The notes below the pieces were generated by a model. The model searched no databases, had not been told where the DNA came from, and saw only the letters and a program-made list of their open reading frames with translations. DNA of 64,000 nucleotides from a virus (Duplodnaviria; Heunggongvirae; Uroviricota; Caudoviricetes): the IMG/VR virus record IMGVR_UViG_3300045988_154391; one strand, given 5' to 3'. The translations under genes were made by a program, and so were the position numbers. Of the stretch, positions 1 through 18,678 are shown in pieces. The first letter of the stretch is position 1. Each line of letters begins with the position of its first letter.

Positions 1-689
1 TTCAGGCTGAAATTGATAAATGGACTTTAATGGCGCGGGAACTGGAACAGTACCCAGACCTCAATATCCCAAAGACTATTTTATATCCAGTGCCTAACAT
101 CCTTCGCGGTGTGCGCAAGGTTACAACTTATCAGACAGAAGCTGTGAACAGCGTCAACATGACCGCTGGCCGCATTATTCATCTGATTGATAAGGACATT
201 CGCATCCAAAAAAGCGCGGGGATCAATGAGCACAGTGCGAAATACATAGAGAACCTGGAAGCAACAAAAGAGCTAATGAGGCAGTACCCGGAGGATGAAA
301 AATTCCGTATGCGCGTACACGGCTTTAGCGAAACAATGCTGCGCGTCCACTACATTTCCAGTAGCCCTAACTACAATGATGGTAAATCAGTTAGTTACCA
401 TGTGCCACTGTGTGGCGTGTTTATCTGCGATGAAACTCTCCGTGATGGAATTATCATCAACGGTGAATTCGAAAAAGCAAAATTTAGCCTTTATGACTCC
501 ATAGAACCGATCATCTGCGACCGCTGGCCGCAAGCAAAAATATATCGCCTGGCAGATATTGAAAATGTAAAAAAACAAATTGCCATCACTCGCGAAGAGA
601 AAAAGGTTAAGTCAGCCGCATCAGTTACGCGCAGCCGTAAAACCAAGAAGGGGCAGCCAGTAAACGACAACCCCGAAAGCGCGCAATAA
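1..689 (+). CDS. 3' portion of an immunity repressor gene, possibly a P1 c1 homologue; 5' end lies outside the window
   Basis: Frame of ORF 30..689 stays open to position 3; converges on pacB as c1 does in P1; C1-operator-like 17-mers occur throughout the window. Identity is by synteny only. Confidence 0.45.
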   Translation, partial: QAEIDKWTLMARELEQYPDLNIPKTILYPVPNILRGVRKVTTYQTEAVNSVNMTAGRIIHLIDKDIRIQKSAGINEHSAKYIENLEATKELMRQYPEDEKFRMRVHGFSETMLRVHYISSSPNYNDGKSVSYHVPLCGVFICDETLRDGIIINGEFEKAKFSLYDSIEPIICDRWPQAKIYRLADIENVKKQIAITREEKKVKSAASVTRSRKTKKGQPVNDNPESAQ

Positions 690-2393: not shown

Positions 2394-3878
2394 TCATTCA
2401 TTAAGCCATGCCAGAGCTTCATCAACCTGCGCTTCGTCTTCGACGCTAAGCACTTCATCCTGGGGAACATAATCCGCCAGCATAGCGAAACAATATGTAT
2501 CCCAATGGTCTGGTGAGTGCAGGTTGAGTTTTTTCTTCATATCCTCCTTACTCATCACCTTCCATTGACCTGCGGAGTTAATCCCTACAGGGATTTTCGA
2601 CGCTTCCTCAATAGTTTCATTACCCTTATCCAGTCTCATACGACCAGATTTTACGGCCTCTGCGGCTTGAACGTTGGCATAAGCACGTTTATCAAAGTAC
2701 AGGCTCTTATCTTCACGGCTATGCATCTTTTTACCCCAGCGTATACGCTGTACGGTAATACCATAATACTCGTACATCAGATCCGCCGTTGCTTTACCCA
2801 GCCCATCACCGTCTATCGCTATGGTGATATTTGGAAATCGCTCAGGATTACATTCTGCGAAAATTTTGGCGGCAAGCTGCGTTTCTGTAACGTCTGTGTA
2901 TTCCAGCATTCGATAGTTGATTACACGGCGTTTATTTCTCTGGCCGGACACCATCATGATATTGATAACGGACTTATCCCGTCCCGTACCACCAGCAACG
3001 TCCACACATGCAAGCCAGCCCCATCCTTTGGCAATCTTGACTTTCCGCCGCGTCGCACGTTCAACCTCATCACGTCCAAGAAGGAAGCCATCCTGTGATT
3101 TAGGGAATAGTCCGCGTACCTTAATCATGTACATAGGGTTATCACGCCCGCCGTACTCCGCCAGCTTCATTTTGATAAATGCTGGCGTTACCAGCGGTGA
3201 TTCCTCACTGTTAAGCGTGATCGCCGTATAAACGCCATCAGGGTTACCAGGACGCTTGGCCAGTTTATGGTGAGTATCGTAGAAATAGCCGCTTGGGCGT
3301 GTAGGCTGTGACAGTAATAAGATGCGGTTATCCTGTCCGGTAAGAGCACCGGTGATGATACCGAAAGCTCTATCACTGACACCGGAGGCTTCATCGATAA
3401 TATACAGAAGATGATCTGCGTGTTCACCGGCGAGAGCTTCTTCACTTCCCAGACGAAAGCCCTTCGGTACTACAGTCCATACACCTTTACCAGTAACCTC
3501 ATAGAAAGCGGTTTCTGTCAGAACAAAATAATCAGCAAGCCATGGAAAACGGCTGGTGGCAGTAGCCCAGTTTATCTTGATGTACTTGAATATACCGGTC
3601 ATTACCTGCTGAATTTTGTTCGCAACGATAATGGCGCGGGCACCGGGATACATGATTATGAACAACATGATCATGATAGAAGTCATGTCTGATTTCCCGG
3701 TACCGTGACCAGACGAAACAGATGTCTTGCTACCCTGTTCCTGCACAGACTCAATAATCAGATCCTGCTGCCAGGTAGGTGTTTTGCCGAACAAAACATC
3801 AGCGGCAGCAATCCAGTCATAACGATATAGCGCCACCAGCTCGCGCCAACGTGGATCCGTTACGCAACTTCTGGCCAT
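2394..3878 (-). CDS. pacB: Terminase large subunit (PacB-like)
   Basis: 494 aa; Walker A-like SGHGTGKS; sits directly after pacA with a 1-nt overlap; size matches what I recall for P1 PacB. Confidence 0.75.
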
Positions 3879-5679: not shown

Positions 5680-5696
5680 CAATACATTAGAGCAAT
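5680..5696. promoter_or_regulatory. C1-operator-like 17-mer (14/17)
   Basis: caatacATTAGAGCAAT between ORF 5698..6741 and the lpa-like ORF. Confidence 0.35.
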
Positions 5697-15033: not shown

Positions 15034-15639
15034 CTACTGAATACGCTCAAACTCGATTACCCAAACCCAGGGATTAGCACTCCAGCTTTCTTCGCCGTAG
15101 ATGGATTCCCACAGGCGCTGGAACGCAACCTTGGCCATTGCGAAATCCCCCTTGGGAGTAAGGAATGTTCCCGGGTGATCAGGAAGCAAACTTCCAGCAG
15201 GCGGAACGCCCTCATCCCTTGCATCGCATTCGCTGATATCGTTCAACCGCTCAACGCGCACGTTGGTAATTTCCAGAAGAATGCGCGATGCCCAGCGCGG
15301 CATGTGAATTGATGGCGTCCACTTTTCTGATACTGGTTTATTACAAACCTCGACCGGAACCCGGTGCGTTTGTTCTGTCCAGGAGTTACGCACGCTTGCG
15401 CGATAAACCAGCGTTGCGACGTCCGTCGCTTTGCCATGTACCCGGTAGGTTTCGCGAACCCAAATACGATCGCCCGGTTGACCATATGGACAATGCTTGG
15501 CAAGCAACTCTGCGGCCACTGCCCGTCCATAGAATTTTTCTTCAACAATCCTGCGAGTCTGTGTTTTATTCCCGCCAAGAATTGCCCGGACCATCTCATC
15601 GTTAAAAATCATGCCGCGCTCTTTCACTTCGCCTTTCAT
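15034..15639 (-). CDS. ASCH/PUA-like domain protein (putative)
   Basis: 201 aa; MIFNDEMVRAILGGNKTQTRR matches the ASCH N-terminal pattern; true start is probably the MIFNDE Met. Confidence 0.45.
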   Translation of the reverse strand: MKGEVKERGMIFNDEMVRAILGGNKTQTRRIVEEKFYGRAVAAELLAKHCPYGQPGDRIWVRETYRVHGKATDVATLVYRASVRNSWTEQTHRVPVEVCNKPVSEKWTPSIHMPRWASRILLEITNVRVERLNDISECDARDEGVPPAGSLLPDHPGTFLTPKGDFAMAKVAFQRLWESIYGEESWSANPWVWVIEFERIQ

Positions 15640-15817
15640 GCATCCCCCTTACCCATGTGCGACGATGCCGCCAAAAGTGATAGAGAACAGCCAGAAATAG
15701 ATCGCGGCCATAATGATTTTGAATGCCGTGTTCATATTTTCATCTCCTGTGATTGATTGGATACATGCCGCGCCTTGCGGCATGTTTTTATTTTCACTTT
15801 CTCTGTTTTAAAAATCA

Positions 15818-15834
15818 ATATTTATTAGAGCAAT
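15818..15834. promoter_or_regulatory. C1-operator-like 17-mer (16/17)
   Basis: AtATTTATTAGAGCAAT abutting the 3' end of the HAD-like gene, upstream of ORF 15034..15639. Confidence 0.5.
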
Positions 15835-16340
15835 TATTGTTGATGGAGAAGCGCGTTTTCATACTCCCTGACCATTAACGTAAGCACGCCGTGCCTCCTG
15901 AAAACACGCGCCACTTCAATCTTATCTTCCAGCGCGAACGCGATTTTACTTAGACCAATTTTCTTAAGGAGATCAATCTTTGCTGGGCCGTCATTTCTGT
16001 CATCGGTGGCAGGACGCATAGATAGCAAAGGCTCAGCCCCGTTTGTTACGTACTTCCGCAGCCAGGCTCGTGTTTTATCCCTTGCGATCTCACAGCGCCC
16101 GGTTACAAACCAGACCGTGTAAACGTTAAATAACTGGCGCACAATATCAATAACTGGAGTTATGGGAGTATCAGTGTCACAGGCGAGATTAAACTCGTTC
16201 CAGTCCTTTGTTAATGCACCTTTACCTGGTGGCGGAAGCAAATGCAGTCTGTCTTCAGTTGCCTCTGATATTGTTCCATCAATATCAACTATGACGATAT
16301 ACGGACGTTCCTGGTGTGCGTGTTTATTGAAAATACTCAA
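15834..16340 (-). CDS. HAD-superfamily phosphatase-like protein
   Basis: 168 aa; N-terminal VIVDIDGT, the HAD motif I. Confidence 0.5.
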   Translation of the reverse strand: MSIFNKHAHQERPYIVIVDIDGTISEATEDRLHLLPPPGKGALTKDWNEFNLACDTDTPITPVIDIVRQLFNVYTVWFVTGRCEIARDKTRAWLRKYVTNGAEPLLSMRPATDDRNDGPAKIDLLKKIGLSKIAFALEDKIEVARVFRRHGVLTLMVREYENALLHQQ

Positions 16341-16412
16341 ATGCCCTCCTCATTGGACGAAAAAAATGCTGGTGGGCGCACTCCACCAGCATTAAAAGTG
16401 ACACTGTAACTG

Positions 16413-17675
16413 TCAGCGAACGTAAATAGTGCCGCCGTTCTCTTTTTCCCATGCATCGCTACGTGCATAGCAAACATCGAGAAGTCTTCTTGCCGCTGTT
16501 TCCTCTAAACCCAATTCGACAACCAACTGCTCATGACGGCGGGTAACCACATCAAACAGGGTATGCAGCCCTTTAGCTGCCAGATCATCAATAAATTCCG
16601 GTTCGAACGGCAGCTCTGCCTCTGCCAACATAACCTCTTGCGCCCACTCAACTCGACGGACCAGTTCCGGGCGGCGGCTTTCCATCTCTTTACAGATCAA
16701 TTCATGGAAGAACTCTACCCAACCTTCCGGCTGGAACTCGCGGAAAATGGCCAACGGCTGGAAGTTTGGCATCAACCATTCGTTGATCCGGATATCAATG
16801 GCATAGCCCATGTCGCAGCAGAACTGATAAGCAAAGTCCAGCTTAGAAACGATATAAGGACGCTCGTTATTGAACTCTTTAGGCGATGAGATCCCATAAG
16901 CCAGGAGGCGCGGGAAGAAGGAGATTTGCCCTAACGTCGGATGAAGTTTGCTTGCAGGGAAACGGCGCTCAGTAATGCCATACATTTCCTTCTTGAGCGT
17001 CGCAAATTTGGCATTCTCATTAACCAGCGCGGTAACCTCTGCTTTTTTATTAGCAAATGCCACGCGCGCTTCGCTTGCATCTTTAATAGTTTTTTTGAGC
17101 TGTTGGTTAAGGTCGGCGACCTGCTTACGCAGTTCCTGTCGCTCGCTTTTAGCTTTGTTATAGCGTTTCTCAAGGTTAAAAGGATCAAGTTTCATGATCT
17201 CTTTATATTGAGATTTTAGCGTTGAAATCTGTGAGTTCCGCAGTTCAACCATCGCGGTCATTTCATTGAGTTTTGTTTCCAGCTCAATGCTTATACGTTC
17301 GGCATTATCAGCACGCTGGTTGGCGTCATGCGTCGCATCGTCGATCGCGTCCTGTTGCTGGCGTTTCAAATGTTCAATTTGCAGCTGAAGCTCTTCAATT
17401 TCTTTACCCTTCAGACCGAGATCCAACTGCATATTTTCAGCTGCATCGACCAGGGAGTTATGGCTATCAGCTTCTGCGTTATAAACATCAATAAGCTGTG
17501 CGTGAAGCATCTCCGCTGACTGAACCGCATTATCAAAAAAACGTGCTGTGAGGTCATCACAACTAACGCGGCGTTGCGCGGCCCGGATGTTCTGGATAAT
17601 GGCCGGGATACCGGCATTCAGGACATCAGGGATAGATACATTTTCGATTGATTGGTTTTGTGCTGAAGTGCTCAT
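16413..17675 (-). CDS. Large coiled-coil protein, function unknown
   Basis: 420 aa; long heptad-like central region rich in E, K and Q; globular C-terminal domain. Confidence 0.5.
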   Translation of the reverse strand: MSTSAQNQSIENVSIPDVLNAGIPAIIQNIRAAQRRVSCDDLTARFFDNAVQSAEMLHAQLIDVYNAEADSHNSLVDAAENMQLDLGLKGKEIEELQLQIEHLKRQQQDAIDDATHDANQRADNAERISIELETKLNEMTAMVELRNSQISTLKSQYKEIMKLDPFNLEKRYNKAKSERQELRKQVADLNQQLKKTIKDASEARVAFANKKAEVTALVNENAKFATLKKEMYGITERRFPASKLHPTLGQISFFPRLLAYGISSPKEFNNERPYIVSKLDFAYQFCCDMGYAIDIRINEWLMPNFQPLAIFREFQPEGWVEFFHELICKEMESRRPELVRRVEWAQEVMLAEAELPFEPEFIDDLAAKGLHTLFDVVTRRHEQLVVELGLEETAARRLLDVCYARSDAWEKENGGTIYVR

Positions 17676-17676
17676 T

Positions 17677-17895
17677 TCAAAGTTCCGTATTAGCTTGTGC
17701 TTCGGTCATTTTTCCTAAGTATGAAGGTGGAAGGACTACGCAATTTGTATCCAGTCCCTCACCTATGGCAGCCTGTAAAATTCTGGCTAAGGTGAGTCTC
17801 TTGTTGCGATACCTGGTGATGACATGCCTGATACCGCCGGTCGGCGTAACAAAGGCGATCAGCCAGTAGTGATATTTCCGTCGGAATGGCCACAT
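17677..17895 (-). CDS. Hypothetical small protein
   Basis: 72-aa first ORF downstream of the paired operator-like sites. Confidence 0.35.
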   Translation of the reverse strand: MWPFRRKYHYWLIAFVTPTGGIRHVITRYRNKRLTLARILQAAIGEGLDTNCVVLPPSYLGKMTEAQANTEL

Positions 17896-17909
17896 AGTGC
17901 ACCTTGTAG

Positions 17910-17975
17910 ATTGCTCTAATAAAAAACGTGATGAGTGTACATCACGTTTTAAAAATATGGAATTATTAGAGCAAT
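17910..17975. promoter_or_regulatory. Pair of inverted C1-operator-like 17-mers (each 14/17)
   Basis: ATTGCTCTAATAAAAAA at 17910-17926 and ggAATTATTAGAGCAAT at 17959-17975, in the gap upstream of the 72-aa and 420-aa genes. Confidence 0.45.
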
Positions 17976-17976
17976 A

Positions 17977-18678
17977 TTATTCTGATTCTCGCTCAAAAAA
18001 TGAGCTGATAAGGGGAAGCCAATCCTCTGACACTTCGCGAGGTCGCGGTTTGCCGTGGAAAAAGATTATTCGGCAGTCTTTTGGTAATGCCCCATTCCCC
18101 CTGGAGTAACGCGCGCTCGCATATTTCGAACCAGGTTCCACAACATCGGCCTTGTAACTTACAAACCATCCCGGATACAGATCCTGAAATGCTGGTGTAT
18201 CATCGCCCATAACCTTTCGTAAGAACCCCTGGTCACCCCAACACTCAGTAGTGACACAACGAGAAATCCAACCTTCCGGATCTTGCCAGAATGCACTCCA
18301 GATATGCGCTTTAACACTATTTGGTATCCACAGGGCACCGCTGCCACGATATTGTGGATGGTAAAAATCCCTAAGCATGGTGAAGCTGGTTGGTGGATGC
18401 TCTAGGATTGGGCGTATATCACCGGCAATAACCGTGTCCAAATCCAGATAGAACAGATCATCGGTTATATCCGGTCGGAACAACTCGATTTTCGCCCACC
18501 AGCCACGGCACTTTTGCCACTGGTTGATCAATGGGACAACTTTGACGCCAGGTACATGTAAACGCTTCAGGTCTGTCAGGCAAATAATTTCATAGCCTTT
18601 TGGCAGTTGATTAACCAGCCACTGCACATCGGAAGCGTTATAGTCACCACCAGAGCGAAAAACTAAAGCAATCTTCAT
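17977..18678 (-). CDS. Hypothetical protein, possibly a DxD-type nucleotide-sugar transferase
   Basis: 233 aa; FYLDLDTVI is DxD-like; weak call. Confidence 0.3.

Follow-up and report, generated by a model that had tools for sequence, protein, structure and literature searches.

C1-controlled early units of P1 and P7

The closest described systems are the phages P1 and P7. The C1-controlled early units of P1, i.e., ref, ban/Op72, dmt, ssb, lpa-pacAB, and c1-coi/Op99, are derepressed upon induction and have asymmetric 17-bp operators at sigma-70 promoters, a design common to the DNA analysed here; these operators are of the ATTGCTCTAATAAATTT type, which we take to be the 17-mer consensus of the P1 C1 operator. 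The genes ssb, dmt, ban, and ref have been named as members of the P1 C1 regulon (PMC4713147), and a C1 operator is annotated for lpa/pacAB in the P7 record. A further unit in the P1 record (AF234172) consists of Op86a and Op86b (OpmgRa/b), the promoter PpmgR, and the genes pmgR, pmgS, and pap, together with Op88 (OpmgT); its counterpart in the P7 record (AF503408) reads Op(sht[a/b])-shtA-shtB-pap with Op(hea). Compared with the other C1 units of P1, this one has two separate, converging monovalent sites placed around a hairpin, and its products are known by deletion phenotypes only. In brief, deletion of pmgR from P1 left less than 1e2 PFU/ml with heads and tails unjoined, pmgR being essential, and pmgR carried on pBAD24g in lysogens and in the indicator host restored plaque formation with no toxicity reported (PMC9024508). 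CRISPRi of pmgR was not scored as essential, which the authors regard as a screen miss. According to published deletions, P1 without pmgS is viable and plates normally, and P1 without pap is viable; for both deletions, plaque assays on laboratory E. coli revealed no defect.

The window, i.e., the whole 64,000-nt stretch of DNA that was analysed, is part of a P1-family phage-plasmid. A 2401-bp region of it was 99.7% identical to P7 and 98.4% identical to P1; gene order, operator positions, and orientation were shared with both records, and there was no difference of substance within the pmgR-pmgS-pap region. The 72-aa ORF, the gene for a 420-aa protein, and the phosphatase gene proposed in an earlier sequence-only reading were all recovered, each on the minus strand. 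The locus is the C1-repressed pmgR-pmgS-pap early unit of P1/P7, so that the earlier observation is correct and not new; since the P1 and P7 reference annotations have contained the locus for about twenty years, knowledge of P1 immunity is unchanged. The cognate repressor gene c1 was present with its 3' part (positions 3-686, plus strand; 228 of 283 aa, the gene being cut by the window start), and its product was 98% identical to P7 C1 (tblastn, E 1e-153).

C1 operators

The 13-mer core ATTGCTCTAATAA was found without mismatches at 17910-17922 (plus strand), 17963-17975 (minus strand), and 15822-15834 (minus strand). When up to two mismatches were allowed, the window contained 14 matches as opposed to 1.8 expected, and 14 matches were reached in none of 100 shuffles. 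The full 17-mer ATTGCTCTAATAAATTT was matched perfectly at 32133-32149; the paired sites described below differed from it by three mismatches each and the site at 15818-15834 by one, all of them within positions 14-17. Two overlapping operator sites of opposite orientation were seen at 32122-32149.

Op86a/OpmgRa (P7 Op(sht[a]); ATTGCTCTAATAATTCC; 17959-17975, minus strand), which was identified by its core match and is annotated as a “phage repressor C1” protein_bind feature in P1 and P7, overlaps the predicted −35 element of PpmgR. Op86b/OpmgRb (P7 Op(sht[b]); ATTGCTCTAATAAAAAA; 17910-17926, plus strand), likewise a core match with P1/P7 annotation, is inverted and lies downstream of the predicted start site, ahead of the ribosome-binding site of pmgR. 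The two operators are separated by 32 bp edge to edge and converge relative to the direction of transcription; they are the two inverted operator-like 17-mers about 33 bp apart that the sequence-only reading had described, and its view of them as repressor operators ahead of a transcription unit appears well founded given the P1/P7 annotation and the presence of c1 in the window. Their cores were invariant across about 100 P1-like loci, with variable flanks.

The third site, Op88/OpmgT (P7 Op(hea); ATTGCTCTAATAAATAT; 15818-15834, minus strand; core match and P1/P7 annotation), touches the stop codon of pap and is overlapped by a promoter-like ATGAAA-18-AATAAT. It is the annotated operator of the next downstream unit (44-aa ORF at 15649-15783, Upf86.8 at 15034-15639, etc.), and in relatives without pap it directly follows pmgS. 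A further operator-like site had been postulated at this end of the locus; the site exists, whereas its grouping with the pmgR unit was wrong, as Op88 serves the next unit. For Op88, the P1 record cites the earlier sequence entries M25414 and X98146. Judged by core sequence, homologous annotated positions, and the presence of c1 in the same replicon, all three sites are classed as P1-type C1 operators.

Predicted promoter and inter-operator hairpin

The sigma-70 promoter PpmgR (17946-17974, minus strand) is a prediction in the P1 record and was transferred by coordinates. With a −35 element TTGCTC (17969-17974), a 17-bp spacer, and a −10 element TAAAAC (17946-17951), it agrees with the consensus at 7 of 12 positions, i.e., it is weak, and was not called by a consensus promoter scan at a threshold of 9/12. 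Between the operators lies a conserved RNA hairpin (AAAACGTGATG-TACACT-CATCACGTTTT; 17923-17950, minus strand; −15 kcal/mol), which starts 27 nt past the stop codon of pmgQ/hdmD and is followed by a T-run into Op86b; read on the gene strand, this T-run corresponds to the 3' A-run of the operator. An alignment-based scan was useless for covariation because the loci it returned were 99-100% identical, and diverged loci were obtained from single-protein queries. The hairpin covaries, with compensatory changes: among eight diverged variants, 96.5% of the cells were paired in the proposed register, as opposed to 40-69% in slid registers, and both sides had changed in 4 of the 11 pairs.

The hairpin most likely terminates transcripts from the upstream gene block. 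A PpmgR start inside the hairpin, as predicted for P1, would let the transcripts of the unit itself escape termination there, while a start upstream of the hairpin (e.g., from AATAAT in Op86a) would make the hairpin a leader attenuator rather than an upstream terminator. Published P1 RNA-seq papers provided no usable start-site or timing information for the pmgR-pmgS-pap unit.

PmgR and PmgS

The ORFs of pmgR (P7 shtA; 72 aa; 17677-17895, minus strand; Shine-Dalgarno sequence AAGGTG) and pmgS (P7 shtB; 420 aa; 16413-17675, minus strand) agree with the P1/P7 annotation, and the stop codon of the former and the start codon of the latter are one base apart (TGAAATG). PmgR matched phrog_3177 and no Pfam or NCBIfam family, and a 13-sequence PmgR profile searched against the PDB gave no match up to E 10. 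Homologues of PmgR were restricted to P1-like elements, where a PmgS homologue was always encoded immediately downstream.

Profile search and structure prediction of the 420-aa protein, as the sequence-only reading had suggested, bore out the coiled coil it had noticed there and added a C-terminal (HhH)2. PmgS consists of a helical coiled coil (approximately aa 15-232; helices 42-160 and 166-232 in the structure model), a small beta/alpha domain (approximately aa 236-347), for which the model was of low confidence (pLDDT 38-72) and no fold match was obtained, and the (HhH)2 (approximately aa 350-413, encoded at 16437-16628, minus strand), a five-helix fold with two helix-hairpin-helix motifs that was recognised by both fold and sequence profile. 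The G-h-G hairpin (h-x-x-h-x-G-h-G-x-x-x-A; KGIGxxxA) was present in 21 of 23 distant members of the PmgS family. In the second hairpin of the window PmgS and its closest relatives, LGLEETA replaces G-h-G, and DNA binding by P1/P7 PmgS is uncertain because of this loss (LGLE). The (HhH)2 is of the type found in the N-terminal domain of RAD51/RAD51C, the C-terminal domain of RNA polymerase alpha, and AR1/AR2 of NusA. In contrast to RAD51, RNA polymerase alpha, and NusA, it follows a coiled coil of about 220 aa and a beta/alpha domain in PmgS, which, unlike RAD51 and RNA polymerase, has no ATPase or polymerase part.

Members of the PmgS family were located in ExoVIII-RecT-PmgS-like arrangements, beside DNA methylases, with NinH/RNase T, with NinX/DUF4942, and in lpa-pacAB-c1 contexts; none was in a head or tail cluster among the loci examined. 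An assignment to SMC, Rad50, JetC, or LmuB was rejected, as the matches covered only the coiled coil (aa 55-236) and scored 10-19 bits at cutoffs of 300-1000 (PADLOC, NCBIfam); the structure model is without an ATPase domain. With nothing but this coiled-coil noise from the scans, SMC-like and defence readings of PmgS in general were rejected. The scaffold/head-morphogenesis label of phrog_1660 does not fit PmgS either, considering the viability of the pmgS deletion, the RecT, exonuclease, methylase, and Nin neighbours, and a match to Pfam Phage_scaffold below threshold (E 0.77, 10 bits at a cutoff of 35). PmgS looks like an early DNA-associated protein and not like a head-assembly protein. 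The names “PmgS-like head morphogenesis” and, in D6, “prohead scaffolding protein” have been spread by annotation pipelines and are not supported by genetics, context, or domains.

Terminator-like hairpin after pmgS and the phosphatase gene pap

A strong terminator-like hairpin (AATGCTGGTGG-AGTGCGC-CCACCAGCATT, then TTTTT; 16358-16393, minus strand; 11 pairs, six of them GC; −18.1 kcal/mol) is located between pmgS and pap, with its stem running from 16393 to 16365 and ending 25 nt before the pap start. It was kept in all close relatives and in the loci L007, L135, and L003, with G·U changes. Being a GC-rich stem-loop with a T-run, it has the make-up of an intrinsic (rho-independent) terminator. 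The single three-gene operon of the sequence-only reading was accurate as to genes and gene order; it was over-simplified because this hairpin separates the genes of the 420-aa protein and the phosphatase. The pap gene (168 aa; 15834-16340, minus strand; ORF and P1/P7 annotation) has a TTG start and the Shine-Dalgarno sequence GAGGAGG, and the consensus scan (threshold 9/12) returned no promoter-like site before it.

The expectation of a HAD-like phosphatase was right: Pap matched Pfam HAD_PNKP (PF25109) with an E-value of 6e-12 (46.3 bits, cutoff 27.6) and phrog_415 with an E-value of 2e-56, and carries motif I as VIVDIDGT at aa 16-23 (DxDxT, here DIDGT). PHROG polynucleotide kinase families were matched over their phosphatase part only (phrog_505, positions 156-292 of 295). 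The best real PDB relative was the phosphatase domain of Pnkp1 (4xrp), with which acidic motif IV could be aligned (FALEDK in Pap, FLLDDR in Pnkp1), the acidic pair being DD in Pnkp1 and ED in Pap. The formally highest phmmer match in the PDB, a designed TIM barrel (E 3e-4), was based on four weak repeats and was discarded as spurious. The record name “acid phosphatase” reflects weak similarity (Pfam Acid_phosphat_B, E 0.024, under the cutoff). Unlike T4 Pnk and Pnkp1, Pap is without a kinase domain and without a ligase partner nearby, and hence is not a bifunctional end-healing enzyme; a T4 Pnk-type kinase/phosphatase was rejected given the length of 168 aa, the phosphatase-part matches, and the lack of a P-loop 5'-kinase. 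On sequence grounds, Pap is assigned to the PNKP-type HAD phosphatases as a stand-alone domain. Neither PmgR nor Pap had matches in the PADLOC or NCBIfam scans.

Proposed regulation and alternative explanations

A C1-repressed early unit in which operators bracket a hairpin, pmgR and pmgS are expressed together, and pap is reached by read-through is probably the best explanation of the locus. In the lysogen, monomeric C1 bound to the two converging 17-bp operators would shut off pmgR-pmgS, with Op86a covering the −35 element of the weak sigma-70 promoter and Op86b placed approximately 15-30 nt past the predicted start. The hairpin and T-run bracketed by the operators, just after pmgQ, would stop transcripts from the upstream gene block. 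Upon inactivation of C1, the 72-aa PmgR, experimentally essential for complete virions, would be made, and PmgS, dispensable and from a family that many temperate phages encode in their early DNA-metabolism regions, would be produced by translational coupling to PmgR. Pap, a dispensable and variably present polynucleotide-type HAD phosphatase presumably acting on 3'-phosphates, would be produced only via read-through of the intrinsic terminator, and Op88 would govern the next unit.

Two other explanations concern the arrangement of the control region. If the hairpin were a leader attenuator of pmgR-pmgS instead of the terminator of the upstream gene, transcription would start upstream of it and need antitermination or C1-independent control. 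AATAAT in Op86a is a better −10-like hexamer (5/6), is kept in relatives, and would give starts that include the whole hairpin, yet read from the sequence it has no acceptable −35 element at 16-18 bp upstream, and the start predicted in the P1 record falls inside the hairpin. The G·U wobble changes in the hairpin show RNA-level selection on the gene strand, and P1 ref offers a precedent in that a promoter-operator is combined with attenuator-antiterminator control there, as stated in the title of Windle et al. (1988); against this, a hairpin beginning so shortly after the stop codon of the upstream gene is in the typical place for the terminator of that gene, and we consider attenuation unlikely. 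The sequence-only reading had explained the doubled operator by harm to the uninduced host, above all from the 420-aa protein or the phosphatase, for which leak-proof repression would be needed. An operator over the promoter and a second one downstream would indeed repress more tightly than a single site, and the paired layout is kept down to a relative with 27% identity; moreover, KilA “promotes cellular death” (PMC8201110), and kilA is among the C1-controlled genes (PMC4713147). However, ban, ssb, dmt, and lpa are harmless early genes and are also under C1; as the regulon includes such ordinary early genes, C1 control marks “early lytic” and not “toxic,” and the step from paired operators to harmful products is unsupported, harm being neither proven nor refuted. 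The plaques restored by pBAD24g-expressed pmgR in lysogens and indicator cells (PMC9024508) also argue against harm, as does the finding that PmgR, PmgS, and Pap matched no toxin, nuclease-toxin, or defence family (PADLOC, NCBIfam), the coiled-coil noise being far below the cutoffs. The location of pap behind a terminator and its TTG start fit low expression better than danger, and the overlap of the second operator with the T-run of a conserved hairpin is another plausible reason for its position. Harmful products are thus regarded as very improbable.

As to the function of the products, the database labels favour a morphogenetic operon in which PmgR and PmgS act directly as head or sheath assembly proteins or as structural proteins (“putative morphogenetic function” in P1, “sheath structure/contraction” in P7, and the PHROG and D6 names given above). 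The unit adjoins the hdm/pmgN-Q block, scaffolding proteins are often coiled coils, and there is the weak Phage_scaffold match. On the other hand, an early C1 operator-promoter controls the unit, with no late promoter annotated at this place in the P1 record; in the main text of Gonzales (PMC9024508), no LC-MS/MS signal is reported for PmgR, and PmgS is not mentioned at all. Loss of a scaffold or sheath protein would not be compatible with the normal plating of P1 without pmgS; in unrelated phages, the neighbours of family members are RecT, exonuclease, methylase, and Nin genes, and no member was in a head or tail cluster at the loci examined; and the (HhH)2 end is typical of nucleic-acid- or RNA-polymerase-associated proteins. 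A morphogenetic operon is therefore doubtful, although PmgR alone may have a direct chaperone or head-completion role. Alternatively, PmgR and PmgS could be an early DNA-handling pair and not part of virion assembly: a coiled-coil PmgS dimer with (HhH)2 ends would tether DNA, a host polymerase, or a recombination factor, the P1-specific partner PmgR would make replicated DNA packageable, and Pap would be an add-on healing 3'-phosphate nucleic-acid ends. This is conceivable, even if we would sooner expect it to be wrong. If it were true, the unjoined heads and tails after pmgR deletion would be secondary to failed head filling, as in the pacA deletion. Since the essential PmgR is under early repressor control and strictly paired with an (HhH)2 protein, DNA packaging is worth considering for it besides virion structure.

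Conservation of the layout in relatives

The order operator-hairpin-operator-pmgR-pmgS was kept in relatives at 69-70% and at 51-53% PmgS identity. No paired repeats were found upstream of pmgR in L009, L046, and L047; the paired layout is therefore missing from some of the most distant P1-like elements. The pap gene was absent in L008, L131-L135, and L003. Considering the terminator hairpin before pap and its absence from several diverged relatives, pmgR and pmgS make up the conserved unit, and pap is best regarded as an accessory gene that lies behind a terminator and outside the operon core. In the relative with 27% identity, the same order was kept with a different operator sequence, AAGATACTAATTTAT, which occurs twice. 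Elsewhere in the window, Ash and ANT ORFs between pacB and c1 are extra compared with the P7 record.

Locus identity and C1 operators

The region at 15700-18100 was 99.7% identical to P7 (AF503408) and 98.4% identical to P1 (AF234172), and was matched over its full length by 19 P1-family records. Its minus strand carries pmgR (72 aa, 17677-17895), pmgS (420 aa, 16413-17675), whose ATG lies one base past the pmgR stop (TGAAATG), and pap (168 aa, 15834-16340), which starts at a TTG behind GAGGAGG. All three are annotated at these positions in the P1 record and appear as shtA, shtB and pap in the P7 record; the locus and its regulation are already established annotation.

The 13-mer ATTGCTCTAATAA was found in perfect copies at 17910-17922 (+), 17963-17975 (-), and 15822-15834 (-), and at up to two mismatches in 14 copies over the whole window against 1.8 expected (0 of 100 shuffles reached 14). 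The paired inverted sites that the sequence-only reading had placed before the three genes were thus confirmed, with perfect cores; the 17-mers (17910-17926 (+) and 17959-17975 (-), 32 bp between them) converge relative to transcription. Its repressor-operator interpretation was also correct, as the same sites are annotated as C1 operators, namely OpmgRa (former Op86a, “controls expression of pmgR and pmgS”) and OpmgRb (former Op86b) in P1, and Op(sht[a]) and Op(sht[b]) in P7. The P1 record also has PpmgR, a predicted sigma-70 promoter with its -35 inside OpmgRa. A further operator-like site does exist downstream, and belongs not to this transcription unit but to the next one, since it is annotated as OpmgT (former Op88, with two predicted pmgT promoters) in P1 and as Op(hea) in P7; in the P7-like window, this next unit opens with a 44-aa ORF and Upf86.8. 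The cognate repressor gene c1 lies at the window's very start (3-686, edge-cut, 98% identity to P7 C1). Across about 100 P1-like viral contigs, the operator core bases were invariant and the adjoining bases variable.

In a distant P1-like element (L003; PmgS 27% and PmgR 36% identical), the layout was kept with a different sequence: two perfect converging copies of the 15-mer AAGATACTAATTTAT (0.1 expected) lie upstream of the pmgR homologue (L003:7704-7750, Logan ERR12361609 contig 339) and share only the core CTAAT with Op86a and Op86b. No P1-type operator was found in the 16 kb of this locus, and the paired sites suggest a C1-type repressor with different specificity. An Op86-like pair was not found in three other distant P1-like loci.

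Hairpins and the position of pap

On the gene strand, pmgS is followed by a hairpin of 11 pairs and a T-run (16393->16365, -18 kcal/mol) that stops 25 nt short of the pap start; a promoter scan of the sequence found no promoter-like site before pap. Hairpin and T-run were present in every close relative, as well as in more distant loci (L007, 70%, with a G.U change; L135, 69%; L003, 27%). Directly behind this predicted terminator, pap was found in the window and L007; in L005 another gene lies between pmgS and pap, in L009 pap is three genes further downstream, and in L008, L131-L135, and L003 it is absent, with pmgS directly followed by an Op88-type operator in L008 and L131-L134. As the position and presence of pap vary, the conserved unit is pmgR-pmgS, and pap is an accessory gene, probably dependent on terminator read-through.

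A second hairpin, AAAACGTGATG-TACACT-CATCACGTTTT (17923-17950, -15 kcal/mol), lies between the operators, and Op86b is off-consensus only at positions 15-17 because its 3' end is the T-run of this hairpin. In eight diverged variants, 96.5% of cells were paired versus 40-69% in shifted registers, and 4 of 11 pairs had changes on both sides. Several G.U pairs suggest that selection acts on the gene-strand RNA; with only eight related sequences, this evidence is moderate. The pmgQ/hdmD stop lies 27 nt before the hairpin, whose 5' arm contains the predicted -10 (17946-17951). A leader attenuator is a possible explanation; the simplest is a terminator of the upstream gene block, straddled by a C1-controlled promoter. 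In the favoured account, C1 at Op86a and Op86b blocks a weak promoter straddling this terminator, and induction yields PmgR and PmgS together, plus a little Pap via read-through.

The Op88 unit leader carries a GC-rich hairpin, ACATGCCGC-AAGGC-GCGGCATGT (15763-15785 and 15740-15762, minus), called a terminator on the plus strand by the scanner and followed by AATCAATCA, an SD, and the 44-aa hydrophobic ORF (15649-15783). In L005 and L007, other hairpins occupy this position before the same AATCAATCA motif.

Predicted proteins and function

By Pfam, Pap contains a PNKP-type HAD phosphatase domain (E 6e-12, above the gathering threshold; DIDGT present), and its closest solved relative by sequence is the bacterial Pnkp1 phosphatase domain (4xrp); judged by its Pfam and PHROGs matches, it lacks a kinase domain. 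PmgR homologues were restricted to P1-like elements, always immediately upstream of a PmgS homologue (down to 26-36% identity), and a profile search of the PDB returned no relative of known structure.

PmgS matched no Pfam family. Its AlphaFold model (11 homologues, mean pLDDT 72) has long helices at 42-160 and at 166-232, then a small beta/alpha domain, and a helical C-terminal domain. Structure comparison yielded the RAD51C N-terminal domain (9.5; 1.9 Å), NusA AR1 (8.1; 2.2 Å), and RNAP alpha-CTD (6.9; 2.2 Å), and the family sequence profile, independent of the model, matched the RAD51 N-terminal domain (2.3e-5) and RNAP alpha-CTD (1.6e-4). An exhaustive search with residues 232-420 recovered about 25 distant full-length relatives; the canonical KGIGxxxA hairpin was present in 21 of 23 distant members, and the P1/P7 protein has LGLEETA in that place. 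For the middle domain, the fold search matched nothing, and the family alignment showed no conserved residues that look catalytic. A C-terminal -AA (KAA, EAA, TAA, NAA, VAA) occurs in 12 of 22 distant family proteins (alignment A3, P0066-P0084; also L033:6001-7140), recalling ssrA-like degradation signals, whereas the P1/P7 group ends in IYVR.

In P1, in-frame deletion of pmgR reduced the yield to <10^2 PFU/ml, left tails and incomplete heads, and was rescued in trans by pmgR; PmgR was not detected in virions, and deletions of pmgS or pap gave normal plating and normal anti-restriction (PMC9024508). A CRISPRi screen scored pmgS and pap as non-essential and missed pmgR (PMC10695390). That doubled operators imply harmful products, as had been proposed, is unsupported, because C1 control is a general mark of early lytic genes, among them ssb, dmt, ban, and ref (PMC4713147) and lpa (annotated operator, P7 record); no harm was reported when pmgR was expressed from a plasmid, and family-profile scans revealed no toxin resemblance for PmgR, PmgS, or Pap.

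PHROGs assigns PmgS to phrog_1660 (“PmgS-like head morphogenesis”). The morphogenetic label is weak for PmgS because its deletion is viable, its neighbours belong to DNA metabolism, and it has an (HhH)2 domain. Outside P1-likes, its gene directly follows exonuclease VIII and RecT in one lineage (36 viral contigs); in Aeromonas phage phiARM81mr it lies three genes past this pair, with a Dam methylase and another exonuclease downstream. In Vibrio phage douglas 12A4 the gene adjoins a DNA methyltransferase; it precedes NinH and an RNase T-type exonuclease in another locus, and lies amid NUDIX, DUF4942, DUF3850, and NinX in a further one; in a distant P1-like element, pmgR-pmgS is immediately upstream of lpa-pacA-pacB-c1. 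At none of these loci was pmgS part of a head or tail cluster; the neighbourhoods are early or DNA-metabolism. A tentative and doubtful reading, weakened by the degenerate HhH hairpin of the P1/P7 protein, is that PmgS, and with it PmgR, works on DNA or a DNA-bound machine rather than as part of the virion. Beyond known annotation, this corrects a propagated functional label, sets pap behind a predicted terminator as an accessory gene, documents a conserved inter-operator hairpin, and directs experiments on the essential, unexplained PmgR to DNA packaging.

The phage D6 homologue (MF356679 9226-10101) is labelled “putative prohead scaffolding protein,” and the phrog_1660 label also occurs in RefSeq; both labels apparently go back to nothing more than the old name “putative morphogenetic function” and the coiled coil, and neither genetics nor gene context supports them.

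Other observations in and around the window

The slot after pmgS, which holds pap and the Op88-controlled unit in the window, carries other cargo in diverged P1-like elements, such as a Dam-type methyltransferase and a GmrSD_N-domain protein (L008:6393-7959) or a BrxR-type winged-helix protein (L047:7574-7915), which suggests a hot spot for accessory genes, possibly of defence or anti-defence.

At 32122-32149, two oppositely oriented 17-mers, ATTACACTAATAAATTT (+) and the perfect consensus ATTGCTCTAATAAATTT (-), overlap by 6 bp as a bivalent-type site, unlike the separated pmgR pair. More operator-like sites lie at 21583, 35979, 51430, 53102, and 5680-5696, the last about 70 nt upstream of lpa, before which the P7 record has Op(lpa).

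Between pacB (2394-3878) and c1, two ORFs (722-2397, minus) encode a 187-aa Ash-family protein and a 371-aa ORF6N and ANT/KilAC antirepressor, whereas in the P7 record c1 directly follows pacB. Preceded by a C1 operator-like 17-mer, TTTGCTCTAATAAATTG (2374-2390, minus), they may form an additional antirepressor module under C1 control in this P7-like variant.
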